Positions 223 through 62,164 of a stretch of 64,000 nt of DNA are shown here, in pieces. The DNA is taken from positions 1-64,000 of the IMG/VR virus record IMGVR_UViG_3300009597_000014. One strand, written 5' to 3'. The stretch's first letter is position 1. The number at the start of each line of letters is the position of its first letter. Under the pieces are notes generated by a model. It ran no database searches and was not told the DNA's origin. It saw only the letters and a program-made list of their open reading frames with translations. A program made the position numbers and the translations under genes. The DNA comes from a virus.

Positions 223-2733
223 ATGGCTGCTTCCCATAAAAACGAAAAGACTCTAAAAGAGATCTATACGGTCCAGCCATCTATTAAAAATTCAGGCAAT
301 GGATCTTCTGAAGAGCATTATGTCAATTATGCTGAAGCACCTAAGCTAACCAAATGGGCAAATGAACCAACAGTAACCAAACTCAAGGAAGATCTTGAAG
401 CTTCACGGCCTGCTCATGATTCATTCATAGCCAAAGTACGTCGCTGGAACGATCTGACCGAGGTCAAAGGTCAAGCAGCTCCGGTTAAGATTAAAGGACG
501 ATCCCAGGTCCAGCCCAAGCTTATAAGACGCCAGGCTGAATGGCGTTATTCAGCTCTCACTGAGCCATTTAATTCCAGTGAGAAGCTCTTTGATGTCACA
601 CCTGTGACTTTTGAGGATGGCCCAGCTGCACGTCAGAACGAATTACTTCTGAATTGGCAATTTCGAACCAAGATCAACCGAGTCACTTTCATCGACAATT
701 ATGTGCGTGCCAATGTCGATGAAGGCACAGCTGTCGTTCGTGTTGGTTGGTGTCGTTATATCGAAGAGGTCACGGAAGATGCTCCTGTCTGGCAGCATAT
801 AGCTCTCCAGAACCAACAGCAGATGATGCAGCTTCAAGCTGCGATCGAGCTTAAGGAAAACGATCCCAGACAATTTGAAGAAGGCATAGATCCAGCAATC
901 AAAGCTGCCGTTGATTATTATGAAGAATCTGGACAGCCATCGGTGGCTATCCAGACTGGTACTGAAAAAGTTAAAGTTGAGAAGATTATTGAAAATCGAC
1001 CAACACTAGAAGTAATTAATTTAGAAAATATCTATTTTGATCCTTCATGTGGTGATGATTTAGACAAAGCTGGTTTTGTCATTCTATCGTTTGAGACTTC
1101 TCAGGCTGAACTGAAGAAGGAACCCAAGCGTTATAAAAATCTCGAATATGTTGATTGGGAAGGTGCTGCGGCAATTACCGAACCCAACCATATGCCGCAA
1201 TCGAATGATATTAATTTTAATTTCAAGGACCCTTTACGTAAGCGTATTATTGCTTATGAACGTTGGGGCCTATATGATATTCATGGTAAAGAATATCTGG
1301 AACCTATTGTTTCTACCTGGATCGGCAATGTAGTAATTAGGCAGGAAGAGAATCCTTTTCCTGATGGCAAACCACCTTTTGTGTTTGCTCCCTATATGCC
1401 GATCAAGCGTCAGGTTATGGGTGAGCCAGACGCAGAACTCTTGGAAGACAATCAGAAGATCCTGGGAGCTGTTTCCAGAGGCATGATCGATCTCCTGGGT
1501 CGATCTGCAAATGCCCAGCAAGGCTTTGCCAAAGGCATGCTGGATGTCTTGAATCGTCGTCGTTTTGAGCAGGGTCAGGACTATGAATTCAACCCCAACA
1601 TGCCGCCCCAGCAGGGCATCATGGAGCACAAATATCCTGAAATTCCCCAATCGGCCATGGTCATGCTGCAGATGCAGAACCAGGAAGCCGAAGCTCTCAC
1701 AGGCGTAAAGGCCTTCTCTGGAGGGCTTTCTGGTGACGCCTATGGAGAGGTGGCTGCAGGCATCAAAGGCATCCTGGACGCTGCTGCAAAGCGCGAGATG
1801 AGCATTCTTCGTCGATTGGCCGGTGGCCTGGTCCGAATCGGTAAGAAGATGATCGCAATGAACGGTGTTTTCCTGTCAGATAAGGAAACCGTTCGTATTA
1901 CCAATATGGAATTTGTTACAATTAACCGTGAGGAATTGGGCGGAGAATTTGATCTAAAAGTTGATATTTCAACAGCTGAGGTTGATAATAATAAAGCCCA
2001 GGATCTGGCCTTCATGTTGCAAACCATGGGTAACACCATGGATTTTAACATTACTAAAATGATTTTAGCTGAAATTACTCGTCTAAAACGTATGCCAGAA
2101 TTGTCACATGCAATTATGCTATTTGAACCAAAACCTGATCCTCTGGTCGAGCAAATGAAGCAACTTCAGATCCAAAAGGAAATGAAGGAAATCGAGAAGC
2201 TTCAGTCAGAGATTGATCTTAACCTGGCTCGAGCCAAGAGAGAAGAAACCACTGCCGAGAAAACCGCTCTCGAGACTGTCGAGCAGGAAACCGGTACGAA
2301 ACATGCTCGTGACATGGAGAAACAGGCTGGTCAGGCTATGGGCAATCAGGCTCTGGCAGTAACCAAAGCACTGGTGACACCACGTAAATACGATCAGACT
2401 ACACCGGATATTGAGGCAGCGATCGGTTACAACGAATTGACCAAGATGATGCATGATCCAAGGACTGGTCCTACGGCAACAACTTCTCCATACACACCGG
2501 GGATGACATCACAAGAACCCTTGGATGCTGCAGCTATCAATGCAATGGCTGGACCAGCAGCAGGATTGAACATGCTTCCAAGCAGGCCTGGTGGGCCTTC
2601 TCCTGAGCTCCCAGCTGGTCTTCTTCCTGGTTCCCCTCCAGGTCCACCAATGGCGCCTCCGATGGAGCCAGCAATGATGCCCCCAATGGCGCCTATTGAC
2701 CAGGGACCAGTCCCAGGAGTACCTGTAGTTTAA
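223..2733 (+). CDS. Portal protein (N4 gp59-like), with Pro/Met-rich C-terminal extension
   Basis: 836 aa; N4-type portal motifs GRSQVQPKLIRRQAEWRYSALTEPF and EAEALTGVKAFSGG; three genes upstream of the major capsid gene as in N4. Confidence 0.93.
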   Translation: MAASHKNEKTLKEIYTVQPSIKNSGNGSSEEHYVNYAEAPKLTKWANEPTVTKLKEDLEASRPAHDSFIAKVRRWNDLTEVKGQAAPVKIKGRSQVQPKLIRRQAEWRYSALTEPFNSSEKLFDVTPVTFEDGPAARQNELLLNWQFRTKINRVTFIDNYVRANVDEGTAVVRVGWCRYIEEVTEDAPVWQHIALQNQQQMMQLQAAIELKENDPRQFEEGIDPAIKAAVDYYEESGQPSVAIQTGTEKVKVEKIIENRPTLEVINLENIYFDPSCGDDLDKAGFVILSFETSQAELKKEPKRYKNLEYVDWEGAAAITEPNHMPQSNDINFNFKDPLRKRIIAYERWGLYDIHGKEYLEPIVSTWIGNVVIRQEENPFPDGKPPFVFAPYMPIKRQVMGEPDAELLEDNQKILGAVSRGMIDLLGRSANAQQGFAKGMLDVLNRRRFEQGQDYEFNPNMPPQQGIMEHKYPEIPQSAMVMLQMQNQEAEALTGVKAFSGGLSGDAYGEVAAGIKGILDAAAKREMSILRRLAGGLVRIGKKMIAMNGVFLSDKETVRITNMEFVTINREELGGEFDLKVDISTAEVDNNKAQDLAFMLQTMGNTMDFNITKMILAEITRLKRMPELSHAIMLFEPKPDPLVEQMKQLQIQKEMKEIEKLQSEIDLNLARAKREETTAEKTALETVEQETGTKHARDMEKQAGQAMGNQALAVTKALVTPRKYDQTTPDIEAAIGYNELTKMMHDPRTGPTATTSPYTPGMTSQEPLDAAAINAMAGPAAGLNMLPSRPGGPSPELPAGLLPGSPPGPPMAPPMEPAMMPPMAPIDQGPVPGVPVV

Positions 2734-2754
2734 CCCCTATTAAAAGGAAACATT

Positions 2755-3144
2755 ATGTCGGATATCCAAGATCTTGAGCAAGGCATCAAGGACGCCGAGG
2801 AATTGATCGGTCGCCGTCAAATGGCCCTCAAGCTTTCCGAAATTCGTGAATTCAGAAAGCTTATTCTGGAAGATTATATGGTTACTGAATGTGCTCGTCT
2901 GGTTCAGCTTTCAGCCGATCCTGCACTGAACGTACAGCAACGGGCTGACTCCCTTGCTATGGCTCAGGCCACTGGTCATCTGAAGCGCTATCTATCGATG
3001 ATGGTGCAGATGGGAGCTGTTGCCGAACGTGAACTGCCTCAGATGCAGGCAGCTCTCGATGAGACACGCTCCATGGAAATGAATGATGACGACGTTGACG
3101 ACGGGTCGGGAAAACAATGGGATGTCCGCCATGACGCCCACTGA
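2755..3144 (+). CDS. N4 gp58-like conserved protein
   Basis: 129 aa, FRKLILEDY..ECARLV motif; lies between portal and gp57. Confidence 0.75.
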   Translation: MSDIQDLEQGIKDAEELIGRRQMALKLSEIREFRKLILEDYMVTECARLVQLSADPALNVQQRADSLAMAQATGHLKRYLSMMVQMGAVAERELPQMQAALDETRSMEMNDDDVDDGSGKQWDVRHDAH

Positions 3145-4351: not shown

Positions 4352-4376
4352 ATAATACCGACCGGAGGTATTACCA

Positions 4377-27594: not shown

Positions 27595-27640
27595 GAACCA
27601 GAAAAAGCACTAAGGCTTACCGTCTACATCGCCTTAGTAA
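27595..27640 (-). terminator. Probable terminator after primase
   Basis: Minus strand ACTAAGGC...GCCTTAGT then GCTTTTTCTGGTTC. Confidence 0.55.
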
Positions 27641-27672: not shown

Positions 27673-29829
27673 TCAGGGTTTCTGGCTCTGATACTTCTTA
27701 GCGACAGTCACCATGATTGTGCTATCGATTTCCTGGGCAGTCATGGGATTGGATAATTTCCCATTAAAACCATGCACCTGGTTTCTGACATCGAGCAATT
27801 TCCAGCCAGCATCTACGAGACATAGTGCATATTTGATCAGCTGGTTATTGCGATTGCCTATATCCATCCGTGAAGCAAACCAGCGCTCAAGATTATCCAG
27901 ATTTCCCAGTGCCTGGTTCCTTTCCTGGTGCTGTTCATTTCTGGAAGTTTTCGGGATGAAATCTAATACGTCGAGAGCTTTGGCTTCGAGATTATAAGTT
28001 ACCTGACATCCTTCATGACTCTGCCATTTCTTGGATCTCTGGTTAGCTGACTCATCGCTCTGGAATGGCAGCCATGCCATGACGCTATTCATGAAGCCTT
28101 TATATTCGTCATGATCGAGTTCGAGATGATAATTGGTTGGCAGAATCATTCTGAACCTGTTGTGATCAGGTGTGGATCGCTTGGTTGTATAGGTCAGGAA
28201 TTTATAATCCTTCATTAGTTCATGAGCTGCCACCAGACTAATACCAGAATCCACATCGATGACGATCATATTGAAGCCGGGGATTACATTTTCATCGGCT
28301 CGATGGTCCTGTTTAAAATGATGATTGGCCCAATTCATATCAGATGCCTGAGCCAGAAGATAAAGCTTCTCGAATGGGACCTCTTCCTTGAGATAATTAT
28401 AAGCCCAATGAGTTGAATATGAGATTACCATTTTCTGGAAGTTAGTTTCCTGGAGTTTCTCTCCTTTGAAAAACTCGATCCCATCAACAAATGATTTTTT
28501 GATAATAATATGTTTCTTATAACCCCAGGCTGTTGCCAGGATCATTTGCTCTTCACGTTGAGCCTTGGCTGTCTTATAGAATGGCAAAGCCTCATTGAGA
28601 TCGGCATGAGTTACTTCGGTATTAACCCCAGCTATATATTTAGCCAATTTCACATAAGATTTTTCACGGTTCAGGATTGTCTGAAATGCAGCTCCTGATT
28701 CCTCGACCAGTTTGATGGCCGAATGCAGATGCTCCATCAGCACCTCGGTGGAACCATCGATAAAGGCATAGGCACCAGCTAGCTTCAGGGTTTTGAAGTA
28801 GCGATGAGCCATCTCTGATTTCTTGATCTCCTCGTGCTCAGGCATGGCCTCTGCGAGGCGTTCACAGTCGATTCGGTAGCTGAGCAGCTCGATCGATACT
28901 TCCTCGCTGACTTCCATCCTCCAGCCGAAGAGAGCCGGGTCTGCCAGCGTATAGAAGTGATGTGCCCACTTGGTCAGGATGGCATCATTCTCTGGTGCTA
29001 TCAGCAGTTTGAATATCTCGGCTGGCGACAGTGACTGTGACGCCCTGACAGGTTGGCCAAAACCAAAGATGCATCGTCTGGCATAGCCGGTCTCGAGGAA
29101 GCTGTAGAACTGATCCTCGGTGGTGGATCCATCCAGCAGCTTGGCTGGTGTTCCAAATAGCAGCATGTTGGTTGGCGTTTTGCCATCCAGTTCCTGGCTT
29201 CTCTGGTTCTCGGCTGTGTTCTTAACCAGTTTTTGTTTAACAATACCTAGATCATATAACTCCAGGAATGTATTCAAAATATCGGTCTGGCCAATCAGAT
29301 TGGAACCGATCTCGTCGATCTGCAGATTGATTGAACCAGCGGATGATAACAGTAACTTCTGCCGTAGCTGCTTGACAGCTGGTGTGGTGCCTGAGTCGAA
29401 GGTGAAGGGGAATACCCCTGCCTGCTTGAATTCGGTTGAGGCCTTATCGTATTCAACCTGTTGATCGTTTCCATTTCTAGCTGCTCGTCCATTGGCGATG
29501 ACCCAGAGATTACCTTCTGAGATTACCGGAAAGGTGTCCTCTATGAAGCGGCTCTTAAATTTACCCAGAATATCATTTTCAGCCATATAGACTGAATGAC
29601 CTTTATTGGAACCAGAAGGTGCCAATGCCAGGGCATACATATTAACCGGAATTTCGCCTCGATCCTTGGTCAGGATGGTAGCCCGCATGGACGAGGCCAT
29701 CTTGGCGAAGAAATATACCAATTGAGTTCGGAAAAAACTTCGATCCAGGTTCTGGGTTTTATTACAAAATACGTCGACGATTTCTTCCAATGCCGGGTGG
29801 TGCTTAACAGCAGTTAAGTCAAGCGACAT
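27673..29829 (-). CDS. DNA primase (N4 gp43/dns-like; PriCT-type C-terminus)
   Basis: RGEIPVN.YA..LAPSG..KG, IDEIGSNL, FLETGYARR, GNRNNQLIKYA..LVD. Start set at MSLDL (29829), overlapping the gp42 stop. Confidence 0.9.
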   Translation of the reverse strand: MSLDLTAVKHHPALEEIVDVFCNKTQNLDRSFFRTQLVYFFAKMASSMRATILTKDRGEIPVNMYALALAPSGSNKGHSVYMAENDILGKFKSRFIEDTFPVISEGNLWVIANGRAARNGNDQQVEYDKASTEFKQAGVFPFTFDSGTTPAVKQLRQKLLLSSAGSINLQIDEIGSNLIGQTDILNTFLELYDLGIVKQKLVKNTAENQRSQELDGKTPTNMLLFGTPAKLLDGSTTEDQFYSFLETGYARRCIFGFGQPVRASQSLSPAEIFKLLIAPENDAILTKWAHHFYTLADPALFGWRMEVSEEVSIELLSYRIDCERLAEAMPEHEEIKKSEMAHRYFKTLKLAGAYAFIDGSTEVLMEHLHSAIKLVEESGAAFQTILNREKSYVKLAKYIAGVNTEVTHADLNEALPFYKTAKAQREEQMILATAWGYKKHIIIKKSFVDGIEFFKGEKLQETNFQKMVISYSTHWAYNYLKEEVPFEKLYLLAQASDMNWANHHFKQDHRADENVIPGFNMIVIDVDSGISLVAAHELMKDYKFLTYTTKRSTPDHNRFRMILPTNYHLELDHDEYKGFMNSVMAWLPFQSDESANQRSKKWQSHEGCQVTYNLEAKALDVLDFIPKTSRNEQHQERNQALGNLDNLERWFASRMDIGNRNNQLIKYALCLVDAGWKLLDVRNQVHGFNGKLSNPMTAQEIDSTIMVTVAKKYQSQKP

Positions 29830-30787
29830 AATAATTGTCCTTTTGTTTACATATTGGAAATGCCGGGCAGTAATCACAGGCTTTTACCTCTCCCGGAACC
29901 GCCAAAACAATTCCTTTTCCACCCTTGCTGGCTTGGTAGGCATGTGCTTCGGCCTTATCGTCGAAATTCTTGGTGGCCCTGACTGTCTTCTGGGGATCGG
30001 CATAATATTTATACGTGGTCTCGCTTCGCCAGAGTTCTTTATCAGTGCAATAGGGAATCTCCTCATCGGGGGATTTCTTATATCTGTCGAGCTGTGCCAG
30101 CTTGAAGCTGATGAACTCTTCGACCTCATTAATCGACGGCAGCTTGACTGGATATTCTAATGCCCTGGTCTGCGGATAGCCGGGGTCTCTCTTCGCCTGG
30201 CTCCGTTGCCAGTCGGTAAAAATGAACTGGATATAGATGTGATTATCAGTGATCAATTCAGGATTGAGCCAGCGATAAATGCCGCCCTGCATGGCATAAT
30301 CGGCATCTTTCCTACCTAGCAGGTAGCTGTAAACCGAAGTGGTTTTAACATCGAATAGACGACCGTCCATTACCATGTCGAACTTGCCACCAATTTTATA
30401 GCCTTTGAATTCTTTAATAGCTCGTCTTTCTATCCAGACAGGAATAAGATTATTATTTTCAATCATGGTTCCTGGATCAGGATTAACAATAATATTATTA
30501 GCTATTGATGCCGGATAGCCTAGCTTCTTCATGGATGCCCTGCCTGATACCTTCCATGCTTTTTCGATAGAATCATGGATAGCATTGCCAAAGCGAGCTG
30601 CAATAAAAAAGGAGACATCCATCTCCTTGTCGCTGTCGAGCACACGCTGGCTCAAGACCAGTTGTCTTGTGCTTTTCAGGAGATTAGTGGCTGAGATATA
30701 ATTGGGCTCATTAATGAAATCATAGTCATCATGCAGGAGCCACACTGCCAAAGGCAAACTGATGCTATGTTCGTTCGTCAATCGCAT
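29819..30787 (-). CDS. N4 gp42-like PD-(D/E)XK nuclease with C-terminal Cys cluster
   Basis: LTN...ISLPLAVWL..DDYD, GGKFD...DVKTTS, YCTDKELWR, CDYC.AFPIC.Q; start set at MRLTN. Confidence 0.88.
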   Translation of the reverse strand: MRLTNEHSISLPLAVWLLHDDYDFINEPNYISATNLLKSTRQLVLSQRVLDSDKEMDVSFFIAARFGNAIHDSIEKAWKVSGRASMKKLGYPASIANNIIVNPDPGTMIENNNLIPVWIERRAIKEFKGYKIGGKFDMVMDGRLFDVKTTSVYSYLLGRKDADYAMQGGIYRWLNPELITDNHIYIQFIFTDWQRSQAKRDPGYPQTRALEYPVKLPSINEVEEFISFKLAQLDRYKKSPDEEIPYCTDKELWRSETTYKYYADPQKTVRATKNFDDKAEAHAYQASKGGKGIVLAVPGEVKACDYCPAFPICKQKDNYYVA

Positions 30788-30923
30788 GATAGACCTCAGC
30801 GTGGTGCGAACTAGGGAAATCACCCTAGCTTGATTCTTCTGGTTTGGGAAGATATTTTTATAATATTTTTTAGGGTATATATGGTAGCCAAAGAACAATT
30901 AACCCACTAAATGTAGTAGGTAG

Positions 30924-34027: not shown

Positions 34028-35350
34028 TCAGGGGAGGATTAATCCTCCGTATTTGCTGGCGAGGTTACCGTACAGGAACACCCTGCTACGTGCCCGAGAA
34101 AACGCCACATAGAGCATCCGGGCTACCTGGTTCTGAATGTTGCAGGTGCTGATGTTTGAGAGATCCACAAAGACCGTGTCATAGGTGGATCCCTGAGCCT
34201 TGTGGACTGTCGCAGCATCTCTGGGTCGTAGATCGGCTATATTATTTTTGAGATTGAAATATGCCTGCCAGTTTTTATCCTTGGCATAATATTTCAATAG
34301 CTGATCCAAGTGATTACGATCAGTGGCAAATGGCACATTGGGAACCAGTTCCCCAAGTGAGGTTCTCAGATCCAGGCGATTGATATCGAGATGAATCTGG
34401 TGCTTCTCATCGACCAGCATCTGGCTTGGTCCTTTGTTACGCAGGACCTCAACCTCTGCCTCGACTGACAGCATGCCACTGGCATGATGGTAGGCAGTGT
34501 TGCTGATCAGCAGCTCACCTTTCTGGAATTCAGTTGGGAGAGTCCGCATGGCTCGAATGTGGTCATTGTACTGGATCACCCTTCTGTTGGTGTAGGCGAG
34601 GATTCGTGCATCCAGGGTCTGATTGTGGAAATGATTGGCCATCTCGGTTTTCATGCCTGGATCATCCAGGAGATCGATGACTCCAGGAACGACCTTGATG
34701 GGCTTGAAATCACCAGTTGCCACAGTCTCCCGTAGCTGTTCGCATACTTCCATCAGGGCTGGCTGACCGGCATTTCTGACGGGCGTGAGCAGCTCGACCA
34801 TCGGTGAATTGTGTTTATAGACAGGGCTCATGGATTCCATGATCGGAGCCAGTTGATGACGATCCCCGACATAGACAAGCTTGCAATCCATGGTTCCCTC
34901 ATGGAGCAGCTTCCAGAGCTCAGTATCGATCATCGAGCTTTCATCGATAAAGATGATTATGTTTCGATGGATCACCCATTTGGGAGTTCGTTTCAGGATG
35001 GTTTGACCAGTTGTAAAATCATCCTTGACCGTCAGATTGAAAAACGAATGCACGGTTGACGTAGGTCGATTAACAGCTGCCGAGAGAACCTCTGCAGCCT
35101 TGTTGGTAGTGGCTGTCATAGTGACTGAATTGAATTCTGGTTGGATGCCCACGAGTTTGCACATCTCGTGATATCTAGGCATTGTATTATCAATAATATA
35201 ATTCATTAAATAGGTCTTACCGACACCGGCAGGACCACTGATAATAAATTCTTTGTCTTCACTAAATAGAAATTCAAAGAACGCATTAGCTGCGTCTTTC
35301 TGTCCCTGGTTTAGATTGTAATTATTACTGATCTGGGTCACGATATTCAT
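34028..35350 (-). CDS. SF1 DNA helicase (Dda/RecD-like, N4 gp37)
   Basis: GPAGVGKT, IDESSM, VGDRHQLAP, TVHKAQGSTYD, LYVAFSRAR. Confidence 0.95.
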   Translation of the reverse strand: MNIVTQISNNYNLNQGQKDAANAFFEFLFSEDKEFIISGPAGVGKTYLMNYIIDNTMPRYHEMCKLVGIQPEFNSVTMTATTNKAAEVLSAAVNRPTSTVHSFFNLTVKDDFTTGQTILKRTPKWVIHRNIIIFIDESSMIDTELWKLLHEGTMDCKLVYVGDRHQLAPIMESMSPVYKHNSPMVELLTPVRNAGQPALMEVCEQLRETVATGDFKPIKVVPGVIDLLDDPGMKTEMANHFHNQTLDARILAYTNRRVIQYNDHIRAMRTLPTEFQKGELLISNTAYHHASGMLSVEAEVEVLRNKGPSQMLVDEKHQIHLDINRLDLRTSLGELVPNVPFATDRNHLDQLLKYYAKDKNWQAYFNLKNNIADLRPRDAATVHKAQGSTYDTVFVDLSNISTCNIQNQVARMLYVAFSRARSRVFLYGNLASKYGGLILP

Positions 35351-35377
35351 GAATCCCCTCTATGTTGGAACCAGACA

Positions 35378-36494: not shown

Positions 36495-36674
36495 GATGGT
36501 CTGTCCAGATGTTCGTGTGCCGTGATCTATTCGATCTACGCCGCAAACCGTTCAGAATCAATGTCCTATCCTGGTTCGCTCTGACTCGTCATCCGAATCA
36601 TGCAAACTACATCAACACTTTTCAGGAAAAATCAAGCCCCTATACGAACATTTTTTTGAAACTCATTCGTCGGC

Positions 36675-37815: not shown

Positions 37816-38843
37816 TTGGTGACTCCATATTCCTTGGTTACTGAACCAAGAGAAATATCTCCCCGGTTGTGATTCTTCTTCCACCAACGCTTGGCCCAGC
37901 AGCCTGGTACAGCGCATTCGTAGTGATCCTTGTCTATTGGCTGCCAGTCATGCTCGCAGTGCTTGCGGACCTTTCTAGTCTGGCACCAGTGACCCTTGAC
38001 TGAGTGATAGCGATGACGCTGTCCAGTCTGCAGATGCTGCTTGATCAGCTTCAGGCCTGGTCCCTGAGCCAGGTGCATGGTCACCTTGTGATGAGGTGCC
38101 AGAACACGCTGCTTGCCCTTGATGATGCTGTGTCTTCTCTCCTGGTTCGACAGGGAGATCACTCCTGAGCCAGGACGAGTGAGCAAGAGCAGCAAGGCTA
38201 TCCCTTGCTTGAGAGAGCCAGCTCCAGATTCCAGCATGAGTTGTTTTTCGTAGGGGCTCCAATCCTCTTTATAAGCAAATTCAAGTGTATGGCTTCTGCA
38301 GAAATTGGTAGCTTCAGGTGTTTTGAACCAGTCAGGAGTAAGACCTTGGTCACCTAAAATAGCTTGTCTTAGGCCAAGCCTGGATAGACCTATATCTTGG
38401 GCCATAGTAAGTTCTTCTTCAAAGCTGATTGGTCGATGCAGTTTGAAGAAATAAGGCATCATATCTGGAACAGATGTTTGTGTTTCCGATGAAAAGAACA
38501 TCGTATTTTCAAAATTAATAAAATAACCAACACGAGAATCGCTATTCTTATCGGTATCTCTTCCATCGAGACCTTTTAGATAACCAGCGAAATCTATTTC
38601 GATCCAGGTATTAGGATATGGAGCTCTAGCAAACTCATGTTCCTGAAGAATCAACGAGCATATATCCCGGATCATGGTTCCAAGGAAAAAACTAGCTTCC
38701 CAATCCAGGACATATCGCTGAGCTTCTTTAAGGGGTTTGATTATTTTTTCAGTTACTTCACTAACTCGAGGAACTCGATGTAAACTTTTATTTACATGAA
38801 TCATTGTATTATCATAGAGGGTAGGCGCATTTTTACTATGCAT
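37812..38843 (-). CDS. Hypothetical phage protein with HxVxGHW and Cys motifs
   Basis: 343 aa; ARAPYPNTWIE, HSVKGHW, C.H.W...C..C..RWW...H.RGD.SLG; GGAGG RBS. Confidence 0.7.
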   Translation of the reverse strand: MHSKNAPTLYDNTMIHVNKSLHRVPRVSEVTEKIIKPLKEAQRYVLDWEASFFLGTMIRDICSLILQEHEFARAPYPNTWIEIDFAGYLKGLDGRDTDKNSDSRVGYFINFENTMFFSSETQTSVPDMMPYFFKLHRPISFEEELTMAQDIGLSRLGLRQAILGDQGLTPDWFKTPEATNFCRSHTLEFAYKEDWSPYEKQLMLESGAGSLKQGIALLLLLTRPGSGVISLSNQERRHSIIKGKQRVLAPHHKVTMHLAQGPGLKLIKQHLQTGQRHRYHSVKGHWCQTRKVRKHCEHDWQPIDKDHYECAVPGCWAKRWWKKNHNRGDISLGSVTKEYGVTK

Positions 38844-38866
38844 TTTCTACCCTCCTATGTTAATGA

Positions 38867-39061
38867 TTATTTTTTCCTACCATGCTTACTGAAACCTTTG
38901 AGGGTCTGAGCAAATCTGGCTCTCTGGCCTATTTTGCCACCCTTCTTGGCAGCAGCAGCTAATTTTTTAGCTGGAATTTTTTCCCCTTGGGGAACACCTA
39001 AATCTCTATGAAGCTGCCCTGGTTTCTTAATTGCCTTTTTGATATTCAAACGCTTGGCCAT
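38867..39061 (-). CDS. Small basic phage protein (KKAIKKPGxLH..LGV..G.KIP family)
   Basis: 64 aa, Lys-rich; AAGGAG RBS. Confidence 0.7.
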   Translation of the reverse strand: MAKRLNIKKAIKKPGQLHRDLGVPQGEKIPAKKLAAAAKKGGKIGQRARFAQTLKGFSKHGRKK

Positions 39062-39101
39062 AGTTTGCTCCTTTTTTAAAGAGATAAACTTTCTAAGCAT
39101 T

Positions 39102-39362
39102 TTATTTATTTTTAATTTCCATATTAATTACAACACACACGACCTTTGGTAGTTTCCATCCATGCGGTTCACGTTGCAAATCTGGGCGATTGCGGATGTA
39201 ACCATACCGTTCATTGTTGAAACGTCTAGCTTCTTCTCTGGTGTAGAATAACCTTGTCCTACAAGGATGGCTGGCATCTCCATCCAGATATTCACGTTTG
39301 CCATCTAAATGATTTTCACTTTGCTGCAGGATACCCCAGGTTAGAATAGATCGTTTATTCAT
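39102..39362 (-). CDS. Hypothetical protein
   Basis: 86 aa; LF.TR.EAR.F..ERYGYI..RPDL..EPHGWK.PK; ATGA-coupled. Confidence 0.65.
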   Translation of the reverse strand: MNKRSILTWGILQQSENHLDGKREYLDGDASHPCRTRLFYTREEARRFNNERYGYIRNRPDLQREPHGWKLPKVVCVVINMEIKNK

Positions 39363-39592
39363 CCCCTTGGTTCCTTTGTCAATGCAGTGTGAATAACAGC
39401 ACGTAATTCATTAACCGACTTCATCAGCTGTTTCTGTCGATTTATATCACCACCTTCACGCTCTTCCATGCCTGCACTGAATGCTTTGTTTAAAATAATG
39501 GGAACGGTTGCTAGCATATCTAGTAGCTGGTCTCGTTCCTCCCGTAGTCGCCCATTCGCAAGCAGCGCGTCAGTGTACCGTTGGTTGCTCAT
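39359..39592 (-). CDS. Hypothetical protein (last, degenerate member of the mini-gene array)
   Basis: 77 aa, contains RLREERDQL; ATGA-coupled. Confidence 0.6.
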   Translation of the reverse strand: MSNQRYTDALLANGRLREERDQLLDMLATVPIILNKAFSAGMEEREGGDINRQKQLMKSVNELRAVIHTALTKEPRG

Positions 39593-39738
39593 TTTATTTC
39601 ATAGCGGGCAAAGCCAATAAACAGCCTCCCGTCCCTATTGTCGCGCCCACGCACCAGCCACCAGCGGCTTGGCCACAAGCGGACAAGTTTGCGAATACCG
39701 AGCAGCGTCGTTGCGTAGCCTGTGCGATGCAGCGGCAT
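39589..39738 (-). CDS. Array mini-gene (49 aa)
   Basis: Hand translation MPLHRTGYATTLLGIRKLVRLWPSRWWLVRGRDNRDGRLFIGFARYEIK; TAATG and ATGA coupling at the two ends. Confidence 0.5.
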   Translation of the reverse strand: MPLHRTGYATTLLGIRKLVRLWPSRWWLVRGRDNRDGRLFIGFARYEIK

Positions 39739-39938
39739 TAGCCCCCCTTCGCCAGCGCGGCGCGGGCCAAGTCACCGATGCTTCGCTCTTGGCTTCCCAG
39801 CTTCCAGCTTTCGTCATAGGTGTTGGCGATCTTCGTCAGCGCCTCGCGCAGCCGGTCGTTCTCGGCCCGAAGGTGTTGAAGATCGGCTTCCGAGCGTTCG
39901 ACATAGTCGGCGAATTGTTGTTCCGTCAGGTCGCTCAT
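39738..39938 (-). CDS. Array mini-gene (66 aa), RLREAL...ARAALAK type
   Basis: MSDLTEQQ...AENDRLREALTKIA...ARAALAKGG; start lies in the junction repeat. Confidence 0.7.
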   Translation of the reverse strand: MSDLTEQQFADYVERSEADLQHLRAENDRLREALTKIANTYDESWKLGSQERSIGDLARAALAKGG

Positions 39939-40105
39939 TTCCTTGCCTCCTTCGCCAGCGTGACATCGACGAACCGCACCGGCCACATCACGATGCGGCC
40001 ATACACGGCAAGCGCCCGTTCGACCCAGTCCCGGCGATGGCTGGAGTAGATAGGTATCCACTGGCCCTCGATGAGAGCTTCCACGCGGTAAGTCAGCGGT
40101 CTCAT
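39935..40105 (-). CDS. Array mini-gene (56 aa)
   Basis: Hand translation MRPLTYRVEALIEGQWIPIYSSHRRDWVERALAVYGRIVMWPVRFVDVTLAKEARK; junction repeats at both ends. Confidence 0.65.
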   Translation of the reverse strand: MRPLTYRVEALIEGQWIPIYSSHRRDWVERALAVYGRIVMWPVRFVDVTLAKEARK

Positions 40106-40299
40106 TTCCCCGCCTCCTTCGCACGAAAAGGCGCCTTACAACTGAAACAATTCCAGCCGTTCTTTTTTGCAAGGCCAGCACTCGTTCGATGCTGGCAGGC
40201 TGTGTAGCGATAGCGGGGTTTGTCTTTACCCATTCCAGTTCTCAAGCTGTCACGATGTGCTGCGTCAGCCCACGATCTCCAACCTGGCATGTCGGTCAT
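40102..40299 (-). CDS. Array mini-gene (65 aa), Zn-finger-like
   Basis: MTDMPGW...CQH...CFSC..FRAKEAGK. Confidence 0.6.
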   Translation of the reverse strand: MTDMPGWRSWADAAHRDSLRTGMGKDKPRYRYTACQHRTSAGLAKKNGWNCFSCKAPFRAKEAGK

Positions 40300-40550
40300 G
40301 AGGAGGCTCCTGCTAGAGCGTCGAGGGCAATGCGCTCCATGCGCTCGATGATGCTGCCGGGCTTGATGTACTGCTTGCTTGGGCGCATATACGCGATGCT
40401 TGTCAGGGCCTCGCGCAGCCGGTTGCGCTCGGCGTGAATATCCCTCAAATATGCTTCGAGGATCGTCTCCGCGCCTTTGATTTCTATGGTGTGATCGGTT
40501 CTGAGCAGCAAATGCCCGCCGCATATTGTGCATGGCTTCAGGTCGCTCAT
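40296..40550 (-). CDS. Array mini-gene (84 aa)
   Basis: MSDLKPCTICGG (Lar-like start)...AERNRLREALTSIA...IALDALAGASS. Confidence 0.7.
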   Translation of the reverse strand: MSDLKPCTICGGHLLLRTDHTIEIKGAETILEAYLRDIHAERNRLREALTSIAYMRPSKQYIKPGSIIERMERIALDALAGASS

Positions 40551-40774
40551 TTCCCAGCCTCGAACTCAAGGTGTTTGATGAGGACAGCTTCAAGACGCCC
40601 GACGTTATTACGAATGTCCCTAAAATCGTTAGCTATTTCGATCAGGTCGTGGCGTATTTCCTTCAATCGCAGACGAGCTTCGAGGATGTTAGTATTAATC
40701 GTTGACAAACAGTAATAAAGCAGACCAGTCGCCATAACGATTACTACCAAAATGATAAGCGCGACTTCGGTCAT
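40547..40774 (-). CDS. Array mini-gene (75 aa), N-terminal TM helix plus coil
   Basis: MTEVALIILVVIVMATGLLYYCL...FEAGK. Confidence 0.65.
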   Translation of the reverse strand: MTEVALIILVVIVMATGLLYYCLSTINTNILEARLRLKEIRHDLIEIANDFRDIRNNVGRLEAVLIKHLEFEAGK

Positions 40775-41073
40775 TGCCCTGCCTCCTTCGCCAGCGCTAG
40801 CCCGAGAGTGGCAATCCGCTTGACCCACTCCGGCGCACGCCGATGCTCGCTGATGATGGTCAGTGCTTCGCGCAGCCGGTCCCGCTCATCGCTTACCTCG
40901 GCCCAAAGCTGTTCAAAGCTGGCGTTCTTATCCAGCGCATCCTTGTATCTCTGAGTTTCATATTCGGCTTTCTCCAGTGCCTCACACAGCCGCTCGATCT
41001 TGGCTTCAAGTTCAGCGATCCGGTCGCGATATTCCTTGGTTTCCCATTGTTCGTCAGCGTTGTGTTGCGTCAT
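40771..41073 (-). CDS. Array mini-gene (100 aa)
   Basis: Two boxes (KIERLCEALE, ERDRLREALT); ends ALAKEAGQ. Confidence 0.7.
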   Translation of the reverse strand: MTQHNADEQWETKEYRDRIAELEAKIERLCEALEKAEYETQRYKDALDKNASFEQLWAEVSDERDRLREALTIISEHRRAPEWVKRIATLGLALAKEAGQ

Positions 41074-41252
41074 TCCCCCGCCTCCTTCGCCAGCGCGGCA
41101 CGAGCGATTTCGTTAGCGAACGCCCCGGCGCTGTATGTTCCTACCCAGCCGTATGTCCCCTGCATTTTTGCGATGCGTGTCAGCGCATCACGCAGCTGCC
41201 TGATTTCAGCAAGCGACGCTGCTGGTTCGTGATAGGCTTCATCGTCCGTCAT
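41070..41252 (-). CDS. Array mini-gene (60 aa; alternative start 41297)
   Basis: AEIRQLRDALTRIA...ARAALAKEAGE. Confidence 0.65.
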   Translation of the reverse strand: MTDDEAYHEPAASLAEIRQLRDALTRIAKMQGTYGWVGTYSAGAFANEIARAALAKEAGE

Positions 41253-53558: not shown

Positions 53559-53587
53559 GGCTCCAAGGGACGGAACCAGAAAAAGAA

Positions 53588-54123: not shown

Positions 54124-54165
54124 AAAGGGGAACACCTGGCTCCATCTCTGGAACCAGGTATCCCC
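54124..54165 (-). terminator. Terminator after gp2
   Basis: Minus strand GGGGATACCTGGTTCCA-gaga-TGGAGCCAGGTGTTCCCC-TTT. Confidence 0.7.
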
Positions 54166-54774: not shown

Positions 54775-54883
54775 TGTGTGCCACGCCTATCAGGAGAGCA
54801 CCGGCCTTGCGGCAGTGCTCTTTGAACCAGAAAAAGGAATGGAGCCCCACCTCTCGGCAGGACTCTTAATGTGTGGGATTAGC

Positions 54884-56654: not shown

Positions 56655-56758
56655 GGGAATATTACCCACCAGAGGATGAACCAGAAAATGGATGCAAGGA
56701 TGCTGCCGTAGATGACACCCAGCCAGAATTCAGAATGATGGGGAGGACGGCGATTCAT
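56651..56758 (-). CDS. Small membrane peptide (35 aa)
   Basis: MNRRPPHHSEFWLGVIYGSILASIFWFILWWVIFP; ATGA-coupled. Confidence 0.45.
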   Translation of the reverse strand: MNRRPPHHSEFWLGVIYGSILASIFWFILWWVIFP

Positions 56759-56979: not shown

Positions 56980-56981
56980 GG

Positions 56982-58014: not shown

Positions 58015-58019
58015 CTGGA

Positions 58020-58730: not shown

Positions 58731-58800
58731 ATTTTAGATTTTTAGGTAATATTTATGCATTAGTGGTATCAGAAATCTTTCAGGAGACAAGGGAAAAATT

Positions 58801-59541: not shown

Positions 59542-59792
59542 GTGACTATGATATGAACATCCATACTAATCCTGATGCTGTGGCATGGGCAAAGTTTTAT
59601 GTCGAAACGAAAGCCAAATATACCGGTCCTGAACCATTCGATACCGAAGATAATATGATCGGTTGGTTTGCAAATGCGATGATGGCTATGCATGATTATC
59701 TGAAAGGTGGACCAACCATATTACCTGATGGTTCAGCATTTTTTGTTGATACTATTTATAAGCCGATGATGTTGGAAAATAAAGATGCTTAA
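59538..59792 (+). CDS. Hypothetical protein
   Basis: DA..WAKF...MIGWFANAMM..HD motif; coupled at both ends. Confidence 0.65.
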   Translation: MSDYDMNIHTNPDAVAWAKFYVETKAKYTGPEPFDTEDNMIGWFANAMMAMHDYLKGGPTILPDGSAFFVDTIYKPMMLENKDA

Positions 59793-61422
59793 TGTCGACG
59801 ATGCTAGTGGTTACCCCAATGAGTGGGTTAAAGAACGAATCGTCGTCAAGAAATCCCTCGACGAATGGCTCGACGAGGTGGATTACCATGATATTAATTC
59901 TGGTTCCTATGTTCCGAGTCAGTTTGCCCTTATTTTTATGAACTTCGTTAAACTCGTAAATGGTGCTGAAGGAGAAACTCATAAGACACCTCCTGTGCAT
60001 CTTAAGATGCTTGATAAAATGCTTTCTAAAAAGGAATTAATTGCTAATCTATGTTTTCGTGGAGCTGCTAAAACTACTTTGTTTTTTGAATATCTGGTAT
60101 TATTTATTGCTACTTTTGGTTATTTACCTGAATTTGGTGATATTACTGGTATGATTTATGTTTCTGACTCCATGGAAAATGGCGTCAAGGCTGCAAGAAA
60201 AAATGTCCAGTTCCGATATGATCATAGTGACTTCCTTAAGGAATGGATACCCGAAGCATATTTCACAGACAGTTATCTCGAGTTTACGAACCGGGACGGA
60301 CATAAGCTTGGATGCCGTATGTTTGGAGCTCAGACAGGTCTCCGGGGGACCAAGATCTTCGGAAAACGACCGGTGCTGGCAGTGCTGGATGATCTGGTTT
60401 CTGACGATGACGCCAAATCCCGAGTGTCCATGGATGCCATCAAGGACAACATCTATAAGGGGGTGAATTACGCTCTGGATCCAACGAGAAGGAAGATTGT
60501 CTTCAATGGTACGCCCTTCAACAAGGACGATATCATGATCGAGGCGGTCGAATCAGGTGCCTGGGATGTGAATGTCTGGCCTGTTTGTGAGAAATTTCCT
60601 TGTTCGAGGGAAGAATTCGTTGGTGCTTGGGAGGATCGGTTCTCTTATGATTTCGTGATCGAGCAATATGAGAATGCAGTTCTGACTGGGAAGACCGAAG
60701 GTTTTATGCAGGAGCTAATGCTTCGGATTTCGAGTGATGAAGAGCGTTTGATCCAGGAAGGGGAGATCCGAGAATACTCCAGGGTGCAATTATTAGAGAG
60801 AAAATCAGTCTTTAACTTTTATATCACCACTGATTTTGCCACTTCAGACAAACAGACTGCAGATTTCAGTGTTATTTCTGTGTGGGCATACAATTCTCAA
60901 GGGGATTGGTTCTGGGTAGATGGTGTCTGCGAGCGCCAGACGATGGACAGGACGATCGGGGATCTCTTTCGCCTGGTTCAAATCTATAAACCTCAGTCTG
61001 TCGGTATCGAAGTCAGTGGCCAGCAACTTGCTTTCATCAAGTGGTTGCAGTCTGAGATGATGACTCGTAATATCTGGTTCAATTTCGCTTCGTCGGAGAA
61101 GACTGGAAAGCCAGGAATACGGCCAATTGTTAATAAATTAACCAGATTTAACTTAATAGTACCTCTTTTTAAAGCAGGGAAAATGTATTTTCCCACAGAA
61201 TTGAAAACTTCCAAGATAATGGCTCATTTTTATGGGCAAATCAGGCTGGCAACTAAGAACGGTCTGAAAGGAAAAGATGATTGTCTTGATACAATTTCCC
61301 AGCTAATGTATCTAAACGCCTGGAAGCCCAGCGAAGAGATCGCGGTCCCTGATTCCAGCAGTGGCATGTGGAAGGATTCCTTCCCAGACGAGCCCAGCGC
61401 CATTTCATCGTATATAGTTTGA
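59785..61422 (+). CDS. terL: Terminase large subunit (N4 gp68)
   Basis: FRGAAKTT (Walker A), LAVLDDL (Walker B), GTPFN, TTDFATS, DDCLDTIS. Confidence 0.96.
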   Translation: MLNVDDASGYPNEWVKERIVVKKSLDEWLDEVDYHDINSGSYVPSQFALIFMNFVKLVNGAEGETHKTPPVHLKMLDKMLSKKELIANLCFRGAAKTTLFFEYLVLFIATFGYLPEFGDITGMIYVSDSMENGVKAARKNVQFRYDHSDFLKEWIPEAYFTDSYLEFTNRDGHKLGCRMFGAQTGLRGTKIFGKRPVLAVLDDLVSDDDAKSRVSMDAIKDNIYKGVNYALDPTRRKIVFNGTPFNKDDIMIEAVESGAWDVNVWPVCEKFPCSREEFVGAWEDRFSYDFVIEQYENAVLTGKTEGFMQELMLRISSDEERLIQEGEIREYSRVQLLERKSVFNFYITTDFATSDKQTADFSVISVWAYNSQGDWFWVDGVCERQTMDRTIGDLFRLVQIYKPQSVGIEVSGQQLAFIKWLQSEMMTRNIWFNFASSEKTGKPGIRPIVNKLTRFNLIVPLFKAGKMYFPTELKTSKIMAHFYGQIRLATKNGLKGKDDCLDTISQLMYLNAWKPSEEIAVPDSSSGMWKDSFPDEPSAISSYIV

Positions 61423-61462
61423 TATTTTTAGACTACTTTTAAACTATTTAGGTGATTTTATA

Positions 61463-62164
61463 ATGAAAATTGAGGAGCTGTTTAGCAGACTCGCCTATGG
61501 TGAGCTGTCAAATCTTGCCATCAACAATGGCGATGGAACAATCATCGAAGAAAAGCAGCCTCAAATCGTTCAATATATAAATGAAGGCCTATTAGCTCTC
61601 TGTTCGAGATTCCGGCTCATAGAGCACGAAGTTTTGATCGAGCAGGTTGAGCATATCACGCATTATCACCTTAAACCTGCCTTTGCCGAGAGCTCTGGCT
61701 CTGATGTCGAGTTCCCATACATCAAGGATCTGCCGGATGAACCTTTCACGGGCGATGTGATCAGGATTCTTGAAGTCCATGACGAGGTTGGTGCTGTTAC
61801 CCTGAATGATCAGGCCAATCCGTTGTCAATGTTTACGCCACAGCCTGATATTCTCTTTGTTCCTACACCTAATCCGTATCATCCATTAACAATATATTAT
61901 CAGGCTAGGCATTCCGTACTAGATACGAGACCTGGCCACATTATTAACCAAGAAATTGAAATTCCATTTTTTCTGGAAACTGCTTTGCAGAATTTTGTGG
62001 CTTATAAGACATATAGCCATATGAATGGTCAGGAAAATATCGTTAAAGGTCAGGAATATCTGGCAGTCTATGAAACATCGTGTCTCGAAGCTGAGATGCG
62101 CGATTCAGCGAACCAGTCTTTCCACACCTCACATGAAAAACTCGAGATGAGAGGCTTCGTCTGA
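61463..62164 (+). CDS. N4 gp67-like head-tail adaptor
   Basis: L.YGELSNLA, INEGL.AL..RF.L.E, K.E.RGFV. Confidence 0.85.
   Translation: MKIEELFSRLAYGELSNLAINNGDGTIIEEKQPQIVQYINEGLLALCSRFRLIEHEVLIEQVEHITHYHLKPAFAESSGSDVEFPYIKDLPDEPFTGDVIRILEVHDEVGAVTLNDQANPLSMFTPQPDILFVPTPNPYHPLTIYYQARHSVLDTRPGHIINQEIEIPFFLETALQNFVAYKTYSHMNGQENIVKGQEYLAVYETSCLEAEMRDSANQSFHTSHEKLEMRGFV

Follow-up and report, generated by a model that had tools for sequence, protein, structure and literature searches.

The window analysed here comprises the first 64,000 nucleotides of the record of an uncultured phage (IMG/VR IMGVR_UViG_3300009597_000014; 74,834 bp, i.e. a 74.8-kb genome). It harbours the homologue of gp43 together with genes coding for an SF1 helicase and an exonuclease, and exact copies of the heptamer CTGGTTC (GAACCAG on the complementary strand) are scattered over almost its entire length (Table 1). 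A Sak4-like annealase and a RusA-like resolvase are also encoded by this phage.

Table 1. Features of the window discussed in the text (coordinates are those of the window).
Feature	Coordinates	Strand	Match or remark
CTGGTTC array, 97 exact copies (54 +, 43 -)	1677..62116	.	∼1 per 0.66 kb
gp43 homologue, 734 aa	27673..29877	-	PHROG 'DNA primase'; 'DNS protein' in phage G7C annotation; proposed word reader
gp43 residues 28-400, predicted MCM-like AAA+ ATPase (helicase) domain	28678..29796	-	3f8t_A, Z 16.8, rmsd 3.8, 250 aligned
gp43 residues 405-475, predicted winged-helix domain	28453..28665	-	several winged-helix proteins, Z 6.4-7.9, ∼65 aligned
gp43 residues 479-651, predicted AEP primase-polymerase fold	27925..28443	-	conserved D-x-D (D541, D543)
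gp43 residues 661-734, predicted C-terminal helix bundle	27676..27897	-	Pfam PriCT_1, 19.1 bits vs cut-off 21.1
Exonuclease (PHROG 2139, Cas4/RecB-like; N4 gp42 homologue)	29819..30898	-	possible partner in a Chi-like scheme
SF1 helicase (AAA_30, UvrD_C_2, PIF1-like; N4 gp37 homologue)	34028..35350	-	might be the reader instead if the word is Chi-like
Intergenic CTGGTTC, T-run 5'	27595..27601	-	TTTTTCTGGTTCAA; ∼20 nt upstream of Sak4-like gene start
Intergenic CTGGTTC	35368..35374	-	TTTTTCTTTGTCTGGTTCC; between H-NS-like gene and helicase gene
Intergenic CTGGTTC	36571..36577	+	TATCCTGGTTCGC; sole intergenic copy on + strand
Intergenic CTGGTTC with T-run	53573..53579	-	TTCTTTTTCTGGTTCC
Intergenic CTGGTTC	54151..54157	-	GATACCTGGTTCCA; early region
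Intergenic CTGGTTC with T-run	54824..54830	-	TTCCTTTTTCTGGTTCAA
Intergenic CTGGTTC with T-run	56678..56684	-	CCATTTTCTGGTTCA
Word-poor part of cassette-like small-gene array	38332..41221	.	0 strict copies; 2-3 broad copies per 3 kb vs 9.6 average
Word-poor tail/host-recognition block, start	62117..64000	.	continues past the window to ∼72.7 kb of the genome

In its structure model (pLDDT 95.8), gp43 models as an MCM-like helicase followed by a winged helix, an AEP primase and a PriCT helix bundle. The AEP part gives a moderate match to the PrimPol of S-2L (6zp9_B; Z 8.5, rmsd 3.5, 139 aligned), and the same residues also match the AEP domains of RepB', Prim-PolC, LigD-pol and D5/E5 (Foldseek E 5e-3 to 0.5). 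At the sequence level, no similarity between gp43 and a solved primase was detected. The PriCT_1 profile (PF08708) is recorded for the majority of relatives, the present protein falling below the cut-off. gp43 was found in every Schitoviridae genome tested, and since its homologues among isolated phages are confined to this family (471 records), the primase is not separable from other family-specific genes. Profiles of DnaG/TOPRIM primases (PF13155, PF01807, PF08275) gave no match in the six frames of the complete genome, although they did match the control genomes; as judged from these searches, gp43 is the only primase of this phage.

Copy number of CTGGTTC and its independence from coding

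An exact search of the window returned 97 copies of the heptamer (54 CTGGTTC and 43 GAACCAG on the + strand), ∼12-fold more than the 8.16±2.94 copies (maximum 17) present in 100 dinucleotide-preserving shuffles. The massive excess on both strands claimed by a first-pass annotation of this DNA is thus confirmed, and all 13 of the coordinates which it gave as examples are true + strand matches. The whole record carries 103 copies, none of them inside its 123-bp terminal overlap. When k-mer z-scores were calculated, as that annotation had advised, CTGGTTC ranked first among the over-represented 7-mers of the genome, both against an order-2 Markov model (z 16.7) and against synonymous shuffles (z 15.7). 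For the broader word CTGG-N-TC the genome-wide count is 240, on average 9.6 per 3 kb. The spacing of CTGGTTC along the genome is Poisson-like, i.e. random rather than regular. Among its one-mismatch neighbours, GTGGTTC (3 observed vs 7.6 expected), CCGGTTC (4 vs 8.5) and CTGGTAC (6 vs 12.3) are depleted, whereas CTGGATC, CTGGCTC and TTGGTTC are enriched.

In agreement with the claim that the sites occupy the sense and antisense strands of genes as well as the DNA between them, 45 of the 103 genome sites are wholly contained in a called gene in the sense and 51 in the antisense orientation, 7 are intergenic, and all six frames are used (sense 18/20/7, antisense 19/7/25). One further antisense copy straddles a pair of overlapping genes, so that 45 + 52 = 97 copies lie in coding sequences. 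Synonymous shuffles, in which codons were swapped within each gene and every protein, dipeptide and the codon usage were kept, contained 25.4±4.3 copies (maximum 40), ∼4-fold fewer than the 97 observed in coding DNA, and codon-order shuffles contained 14.9. Of the 232 peptide contexts able to carry CTGGTTC, 97 (42%) do so against 9% expected, again in all six frames. According to the first-pass annotation, its claim would be refuted if the excess disappeared in such shuffles, as an effect of codon pairs would; because the excess survives although proteins, dipeptides and codon usage are all preserved, CTGGTTC is selected at the DNA level, independently of frame. Intergenic DNA is not enriched in the word, 7 of 103 corresponding to about the proportion of the genome that is non-coding; in 5 of these 7 sites CTGGTTC is combined with a T-run.

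Two modules are poor in the word, much as had been noticed at first sight. The cassette array between 38,331 and 42,584 contains a single CTGGTTC site, at 41,222. The tailspike gene had been described as devoid of copies, and none was found in the window part of the tail gene starting at 62,164; the genes at 62164-64950, 64979-68905, 69626-70939 and 70950-72713 of the genome hold 9 copies of the broad word where ∼31 are expected. These exchangeable tail and cassette modules may represent recently acquired DNA in which the word has not accumulated so far.

The word in Schitoviridae, its flanks and strand polarity

The comparison with relatives and hosts, which had been proposed at the outset, covered 26 Schitoviridae genomes with a GC content of 35-59% and hosts from the alpha-, beta- and gamma-proteobacteria. 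In 18 of them the first-ranking 7-mer is a word of the form NTGGNTN (CTGGTTC, TTGGTTC, TTGGYTT or CTGGYTT). Coliphage N4 carries 110 copies (1.57/kb) vs 10 of a reversed control word, whereas E. coli K-12 (720 copies in 4.64 Mb, 0.155/kb) is at about random expectation and ten times less dense. E. coli enters this comparison as the host of N4. No comparable enrichment was seen in T7, lambda and phiKMV. The present phage thus has CTGGTTC as its dialect of a word that is kept dense throughout Schitoviridae, with the consensus 5'-Y-TGG-Y-T-Y-3' after ∼10 pyrimidine-rich bases. As the density in E. coli K-12 is low and the word family persists over unrelated hosts, it is not a host signal, and the reader of the word is probably phage-encoded rather than host-encoded.

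What selection maintains is the density, with ∼100 copies per genome distributed over the two strands. Single sites turn over: only 4 of 55 sites are shared with N4, and 17 of 58, 15 of 55 and 8 of 59 with the relatives G001, G004 and G003, respectively. Many CTGGTTC sites coincide with amino acid differences from the relatives.

Of the 11 bases 5' of CTGGTTC, 63-65% are pyrimidines whether the site is sense or antisense, vs 47-53% in the background, and position -1 is C or T in 75% of the sites of this genome. The pyrimidine-rich 5' flank is present family-wide, G accounting for only 6-8% at positions -4/-3 of the intergenic sites of the 26 genomes. Such a composition suits a purine-started primer, as would be expected of a site recognised by an AEP primase.

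In addition, all 26 genomes favour one physical strand (1330:820, or 62:38; p 3e-28), namely the sense strand of the late genes. The bias has the same sign in late (571:388) and in early/middle genes (560:334), hence it is not due to transcription. At four-fold sites the skew of the favoured strand is G>C and T>A, which would be expected of a lagging-strand template; with late genes on one strand and early genes on the other, however, skew and gene class are confounded. In ten isolates the bias is strongest (69:15, 82%) in the first tenth of the genome, provided that the records start at the true left end; in N4, the left end is the first to enter the cell. The early region of the present genome is without such bias (7 vs 10 by a hand count of the window sites).

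Possible readers of the word

The first-pass annotation took the heptamer for a genome-wide cis signal, and this view is strongly supported by selection at the DNA level, by independence from frame and by family dialects kept regardless of host. Among the functions it suggested, primase recognition fits best, although not in its T7 form, (G/T)GGTC: the only primase of the genome appears to be of the AEP type, with the NrS-1 site 5'-TTTGGTTA-3' as the nearest precedent. The best reading, to which we give about an even chance, is that the word marks start sites of the phage's own primase, and gp43 would be the protein most likely to read it and to prime there. On the model of the primase-polymerases of pRN1 and NrS-1, gp43 may use its helix bundle to bind the word on the single-stranded template exposed by the helicase, after which the catalytic domain would begin a purine-initiated primer on the pyrimidine-rich bases directly 5' of the word. 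A primase of such selectivity would meet a random 7-mer only once per ∼16 kb per strand, which may be the reason why the genome has become enriched to ∼1 site per 1.4 kb per strand, approximately the size of an Okazaki fragment.

The primase ORF904 of pRN1, the site of which is 5'-GTG-3', has the same domain order as NrSPol, the AEP primase-polymerase of NrS-1. NrSPol recognises 5'-TTTGGTTA-3' and 5'-GTG(G/A)-3' and begins primer synthesis on the base immediately 5' of the recognised sequence; in the pRN1 and NrS-1 primases the template recognition site is bound by a PriCT-type helix bundle, and the helicase domain of NrSPol is C-terminal (PMC8718748). The family word YTGGYTY has TTGGTT in common with the long site and TGG with GTGG, which is a resemblance of the words and not homology of the enzymes, and in the gp43 model, too, an AEP fold is followed by a PriCT-type helix bundle. 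However, the helicase-first order of gp43 (helicase, winged helix, AEP, helix bundle) differs from that of NrS-1 and pRN1, and its AEP fold matches are moderate. Moreover, the NrS-1 genome reportedly has few copies of the long site, far fewer than of GTG, and this site was suggested to initiate replication at a specific position (PMC8718748), whereas ∼100 copies of the word are spread over both strands here.

The DnaG-type primases offer a further parallel, since their sites are likewise short oriented template words that set the starts of lagging-strand primers. T7 gp4 recognises 5'-(G/T)(G/T)GTC-3' and T4 gp61 recognises 5'-G(T/C)T-3', and the T7 primer pppACCA is similar to A-R-C-C-A, the complement of the N4-family core. 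Yet the sites of T7's own primase are enriched just 1.1 to 1.6-fold in T7, compared with 4-fold (synonymous) to 12-fold (dinucleotide) here, and the present genome lacks a DnaG-type enzyme. Other observations also speak against primase start sites. None of the results ties the word to gp43 specifically; position 1 of the dialect has undergone at least 6 changes, equal in number on the primase, capsid and polymerase trees, and C-type genomes are not told from T-type ones by any column in the alignments of gp43 and six further conserved proteins. If selection for Okazaki spacing were strict, one might, furthermore, expect regularity rather than the Poisson-like pattern.

A Chi-like signal, in which a helicase-nuclease reads the word on one strand and switches from degradation to recombination or protection, seems unlikely. 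The enzyme could be the phage SF1 helicase acting with the RecB/Cas4-like exonuclease, or a conserved host enzyme, and phage DNA with its ∼1.4 words per kb would be spared whereas host DNA would not; the annealase and resolvase genes suit the scheme as well. Like Chi and KOPS, the word is oriented, over-represented and biased towards one physical strand regardless of transcription, with a peak at the presumed first-entering end, and its random spacing at high density recalls both Chi and uptake sequences. It also has CTGGT in common with the E. coli Chi, 5'-GCTGGTGG-3', which occurs about once per 4.6 kb in E. coli. Nevertheless, Chi is host-specific, differs between bacterial groups and is enriched in the host chromosome, while the present word is specific to a phage family with hosts in three proteobacterial classes, is several times denser, differs from the E. 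coli Chi and is unenriched in E. coli K-12. Known Chi recognition, moreover, assigns no role to a one-sided pyrimidine-rich flank, and the unbiased early region of this genome does not fit either. No higher probability can be given to another phage DNA-binding protein acting in condensation/packaging, in ejection or as an accessory factor for the phage RNA polymerases. Family-wide, host-independent enrichment with dialect drift is what a co-evolving protein-DNA pair would produce, the polarity could follow the direction of packaging or ejection, and some intergenic copies closely precede a gene, on its sense strand; but the sites are mainly genic, in both orientations and not enriched between genes, a duplex binder is not expected to need a pyrimidine tract on one strand, and no family-conserved candidate was identified besides the replication proteins.

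It is quite improbable that the word is a functionless by-product of sequence-biased mutation or repair, for instance of short-patch repair or of a nicking enzyme converting near-matches. The fast turnover and random spacing of the sites, the depletion of several one-mismatch neighbours and the scarcity in recently acquired modules, which fits slow accumulation, would be accounted for, but every lineage would still need a conserved sequence-specific enzyme, and neither the flank preference nor the polarity in 26 of 26 genomes is expected; many sites involve amino acid differences, and CTGGATC, CTGGCTC and TTGGTTC are enriched instead of depleted. It is very improbable that phage DNA is protected or marked by a sequence-specific modification, or by a site-specific nick, at the word: although the word is short, asymmetric and present on both strands, resembling type IIS/III or BREX-type sites, such targets are not normally over-represented, and three main DNA methyltransferase families (PF01555, PF00145, PF02086) have no match in the genome. 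Words containing CTGG are common in enterobacterial genomes, and the uptake sequences of Haemophilus (USS) and Neisseria (DUS) as well as cyanobacterial HIP1 resemble the word in density (∼1 per kb), in being genic, in both orientations and all frames, and in being maintained in number rather than at fixed positions. These, however, are host-genome words that reach phages secondarily, whereas here the word follows the phage family, and E. coli K-12, unlike the uptake-sequence hosts, is not enriched in it. A composition signal derived from the host (uptake sequence, host Chi, codon-pair or dipeptide bias) is therefore scarcely tenable, being contradicted by the shuffles, by the 26-genome survey with its range of hosts and GC content, by the E. 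coli K-12 density and by the other E. coli and Pseudomonas phages without enrichment.

Start sites for gp43 thus being the preferred reading, a tentative and rather doubtful extension of it is that the word serves as a 'self' mark of the phage, the gp43 helicase-primase priming efficiently only on word-dense DNA. Were this the case, lagging-strand synthesis would be confined to phage DNA, host DNA being ten times poorer in the word, and dialect drift between CTGGTTC, TTGGTTC, TTGGYTT and CTGGYTT would lead to replication incompatibility between lineages and to a penalty on freshly imported modules. It would also mean genome-wide co-evolution of one primase with its entire template, which, to our knowledge, has not been described for any virus.

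Abundance of the heptamer and the question of a coding origin

The heptamer CTGGTTC (complement GAACCAG), for which the first-pass annotation had claimed over-representation on both strands, was found by exact search in 97 copies in the window (54 on the + and 43 on the - strand), compared with 8.16 +/- 2.94 copies (maximum 17) in 100 dinucleotide-preserving shuffles, and every coordinate offered there as an example proved to be a true match. The window forms bases 1-64,000 of a 74,834-bp IMG/VR virus record (G000). The record as a whole harbours 103 copies, the overlap of its ends containing none, and no other 7-mer of the genome comes near CTGGTTC in over-representation (103 vs 22.9, z = 16.7, order-2 Markov model). 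Since these ends share 123 bp, the record is regarded as a circularly closed assembly. It is the genome of an N4-like phage (Schitoviridae) whose capsid protein shares 74-75% identity with its Moo19 and N4 counterparts; our search found no isolates close to it in DNA sequence. In 24 DNA runs from metagenomes of freshwater sediment, sediment and groundwater (2017-2025), contigs match the phage at 99% identity or more (window 48000-57900 and 42500-62400), with no RNA run among those listed; the phage is therefore considered widespread and stable in such habitats. In this lytic N4-like phage, a gene that separates the helicase gene from the small middle genes encodes a protein with an H-NS-type DNA-binding domain.

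Features of the G000 genome and predicted domains of its gp43 homologue
Feature	Position	Strand	Details
Late genes	1-24,311 and 57,976 onward	+	
Virion RNA polymerase (late)	12,657-24,311	+	3,884 aa
Early and middle genes	24,295-57,774	-	
N4 gp43 homologue	27,673-29,877	-	734 aa; PHROG 'DNA primase'
H-NS-like protein	35436-36026	-	196 aa; H-NS histone C-terminal DNA-binding domain, PF00816, E 8.7e-10
Cassette-like array	near 39-42 kb		
Four tail/host-recognition genes	62.2-72.7 kb		
gp43, predicted MCM-like AAA+ ATPase	residues 28-400		3f8t_A, Z 16.8, rmsd 3.8, 250 aligned
gp43, predicted winged helix	residues 405-475		Z about 7-8
gp43, predicted AEP primase-polymerase fold	residues 479-651		S-2L PrimPol 6zp9_B, Z 8.5, rmsd 3.5, 139 aligned
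gp43, predicted helix bundle	residues 661-734		generic helical-bundle matches only (Z <=6.5); weak Pfam match to PriCT_1, residues 673-721

When the 103 sites were placed by whole containment inside a called gene, 45 were sense (frames 18/20/7), 51 antisense (frames 19/7/25) and 7 intergenic; one further antisense copy straddles two overlapping genes, which gives 97 copies in coding sequences (45 + 52). Permutation of synonymous codons within each gene, which leaves proteins, dipeptides and codon usage unchanged, yielded 25.4 +/- 4.3 copies (maximum 40; z = 15.7 for the observed number), and permutation of whole codons yielded 14.9. Moreover, the word is present in 97 of the 232 compatible tripeptide contexts (42%), whereas codon usage predicts 20.4 (9%). 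The first-pass annotation would have abandoned its claim had the enrichment been lost in synonymous or dipeptide-preserving shuffles; it persisted, and the excess over the context expectation, 2.5 to 6-fold, holds in each of the six frames. An origin of the word in dipeptides or codon usage is thus rejected.

As for its anatomy, position 1 is preferably C, then T; positions 2-4 are strictly TGG; position 5 is preferably T, followed by A, C and G; positions 6 and 7 are T and C. The broad form CTGG-N-TC occurs 229 times in coding sequences, where ~80 are expected, and 240 times in the whole genome; a form TTTTTCTGGTTC has also been noted for this genome. The second most enriched variant is CTGGATC, which contains GATC (71 vs 26.9 in synonymous shuffles), and the palindrome AATTAATT is enriched as well (22 vs 4.2). 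Another enriched word, TGTTGGT/ACCAACA (37 copies vs 12.8 in synonymous shuffles; e.g. window 741, 4733, 5366, 7662 and 14237), including its 8-mer GTGTTGGT (14 vs 1.9), contains TTGGT and could be related to the main one.

The word in the phage family and in hosts

Coliphage N4 carries 110 copies in 70,153 bp (1.57 per kb), with only 10 of the reversed control word, whereas the 720 copies in the 4.64 Mb of E. coli K-12 (0.155 per kb) are about what is expected at random. The comparison was extended to 26 complete Schitoviridae genomes with GC contents from 35% to 59%: 14 uncultured IMG/VR records and 12 isolates, the latter comprising ten named GenBank records and two found in IMG/VR (Zuri and G017, probably Erwinia phage S6). 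The named isolates infect Escherichia, Klebsiella, Pectobacterium, Pseudomonas aeruginosa, P. putida, Achromobacter, Rhizobium, Sulfitobacter, Vibrio and Acinetobacter. In 18 of the 26 genomes an N-TGG-N-T-N word heads the over-represented 7-mers, and in all but one of the remaining eight such a word ranks within the top ten by Markov z-score. Lineages differ in dialect around an invariant core, TGG-Y-T; Zuri/G016 and G018, initially scored as lacking CTGGTTC, use TTGGTTC instead.

Dialects of the word among Schitoviridae (G020, one of the 26 genomes)
Dialect	Genomes
CTGGTTC (+ CTGGCTC)	N4, St11Ph5, G000, five IMG/VR relatives
TTGGTTC	Zuri, phiAxp-3, RHph_Y38, VCO139, six IMG/VR relatives
TTGGATC / TTGGTTC, weaker	G020
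TTGGTTT / TTGGCTT	LIT1, nACB1, K480, EE36phi1; weakly Pylas
CTGGCTT / CTGGTTT	CB1
ATGGCTC / ATGGTTC, weaker	G017 (probably Erwinia phage S6)

The control phages T7, lambda and phiKMV contain 1-9 copies of these dialect words, and their best N-TGG-N-T-N words rank 26th, 18th and 131st. Given the near-random frequency in K-12, the pattern across 26 genomes of one family and the absence of enrichment in these controls, a host signal was rejected and a host origin of the word is excluded. The word is intrinsic to the phage family, is a feature of the DNA itself, is oriented, and is maintained at ~100 copies per genome through continuing selection or drive, with lineage-specific dialects. A literature search that covered few subscription journals found no paper on the ~110 heptamer copies of N4 or on a family-wide word.

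Other words are enriched in particular lineages. In the GC-rich relatives G001 and G002 (whole genomes), L019 and L020, the AT-rich AGATAAT/ATTATCT outdoes the main word (31 vs 2.4; 41 vs 2.3; 13 vs 0.1 in 21 kb); it may represent a promoter or some different regulatory box. GATATC is enriched in K480 (60 vs 15) and CB1 (48 vs 18), GCCGGCG in the relative G006 (69 vs 14) and TGGCGCC in G017 (50 vs 11), all of these being palindromic or GC-rich.

Turnover, flanks and strand polarity

Protein-guided codon alignments of orthologues revealed that few G000 sites have a counterpart at the homologous position: 4 of 55 in N4, 17 of 58 in G001, 15 of 55 in G004 and 8 of 59 in G003, although each of these phages carries about 85-110 copies of CTGGTTC. 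Density is thus kept, individual positions are not. Regular spacing was rejected, as the distances are Poisson-like on each strand (coefficient of variation ~1) and the maximum gaps are those of random placement; likewise, a hand count in the window gave four inverted word pairs within 30 bp vs ~2 expected, which is not significant. The word is scarce in exchangeable modules, namely the four tail/host-recognition genes (9 broad copies vs ~31 expected) and the cassette-like array (2-3 broad copies per 3 kb vs 9.6).

In G000, the 11 bases 5' of the word are rich in pyrimidines at both sense (0.63, background 0.47) and antisense sites (0.65, background 0.53), while no such enrichment is seen on the 3' side. 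The 5' flank is found family-wide, with G at only 6-8% at positions -4 and -3 of intergenic sites, and in G000 a T-run precedes CTGGTTC at five of the seven intergenic copies.

The sense strand of the late genes is the richer in the word in all 26 genomes (1,330 vs 820, p = 3e-28). Because the bias has the same sign within late genes (571:388, word sense) and within early and middle genes (560:334, word antisense), the polarity belongs to the DNA strand and not to transcription. At four-fold degenerate sites of the word-rich strand, after removal of the sense-strand effect, G exceeds C by 0.057 (25 of 26 genomes) and T exceeds A by 0.081 (26 of 26), a decomposition that is confounded with gene class, late and early genes being on opposite strands. 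Such an excess of G over C together with T over A is what a lagging-strand template usually shows. In ten pooled isolates, the records of which are assumed to begin at the true left end, the word bias amounts to 82% (69:15) in the first tenth and 51-67% elsewhere; this tenth (e.g. N4 1-7000), assumed to be the first-entering end, also has the highest late-sense word density. The switch of orientation along the genome that a bidirectional origin would produce was found neither in N4 nor in G000 nor in the ten pooled isolates.

gp43 and the possible readers of the word

The candidate reader is the homologue of N4 gp43, which is the genetically defined 'dns' function and the counterpart of which in phage G7C is annotated 'DNS protein'. 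Given an alignment of 121 representatives (28-61% identity), AlphaFold models gp43 with very high confidence (mean pLDDT 95.8) as a four-domain protein composed of an MCM-like AAA+ ATPase, a winged helix, an AEP fold and a PriCT helix bundle. Its C-terminal 280 residues modelled alone (pLDDT 79) gave exclusively AEP proteins as top Foldseek matches, all with weak E-values (S-2L PrimPol, RepB', Prim-PolC, LigD polymerase, poxvirus D5/E5). Neither the single sequence nor a profile of 121 sequences matched any solved structure, and to our knowledge no structure of this architecture has been solved. The G000 genome encodes no DnaG/TOPRIM-type primase. Each of the 16 further Schitoviridae genomes examined for gp43 has it (42-67% identity), hence its presence or absence does not discriminate enriched genomes. 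No gp43 outside N4-like phages was detected by tblastn against 50,697 phage records, nor any relative outside Schitoviridae in a locus search with two distant representatives. Several gp43 matches are split or contain one in-frame stop (Vibrio phage VCO139, L148; L138, L142 and L149), and in VCO139 the primase gene is spread over two places close to a gene for an HNH endonuclease, an arrangement which suggests that mobile elements have inserted into the primase gene of some lineages.

A precedent is provided by the AEP primase-polymerase of NrS-1, which recognizes 5'-TTTGGTTA-3' and also 5'-GTG(G/A)-3', begins primer synthesis mainly at the base adjoining the site on its 5' side, and is held to bind it through a helix-bundle domain, as in pRN1 ORF904 (PMC8718748). 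The former site includes TTGGTT, which forms the core shared by the dialects TTGGTTC and TTGGTTT described here. Apart from this paper, the same literature search returned nothing relevant on primase recognition or the replication origin of N4. A start 5' of the site, with primers beginning with purines, would account for a pyrimidine tract on one side only. Chance alone would place a given 7-mer once per ~16 kb per strand; the observed density, one per ~1.4 kb per strand, is close to the size of Okazaki fragments. On balance, the chances seem about even that the gp43 helicase-primase recognizes its template at this word. Nothing in the sequences ties it to gp43 over other family-specific proteins: trees and alignment columns do not single out the primase, and the dialect follows it no better than other genes. 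The irregular spacing also speaks against a primase site, as does the fact that T7 primase sites are barely enriched in T7.

Less probably, the word is read by another phage DNA-binding protein. A Chi-like signal is likewise a less probable reading; its readers would be the phage SF1 helicase (gp37 homologue) and the RecB/Cas4-like exonuclease (gp42 homologue), and it would suit the marked bias of the left end, presumed the first to enter the cell. A modification target is improbable, the three main DNA methyltransferase families being missing from the G000 genome, and so is an origin in repair or mutation drive.

Since the 1960s N4 has served as a model phage. Should the word be a primase start site, it would provide a cheaply testable recognition sequence for a new MCM-AEP class of helicase-primases and an instance of a primase whose specificity has moulded the whole genome that encodes it; the word would also serve as a marker for Schitoviridae classification and recently imported modules, and as a guide for recoding phage genomes without harm to replication. 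If, on the other hand, it serves as a Chi-like signal or a mark of self, a system of this kind would for the first time be linked to a phage family instead of a host.
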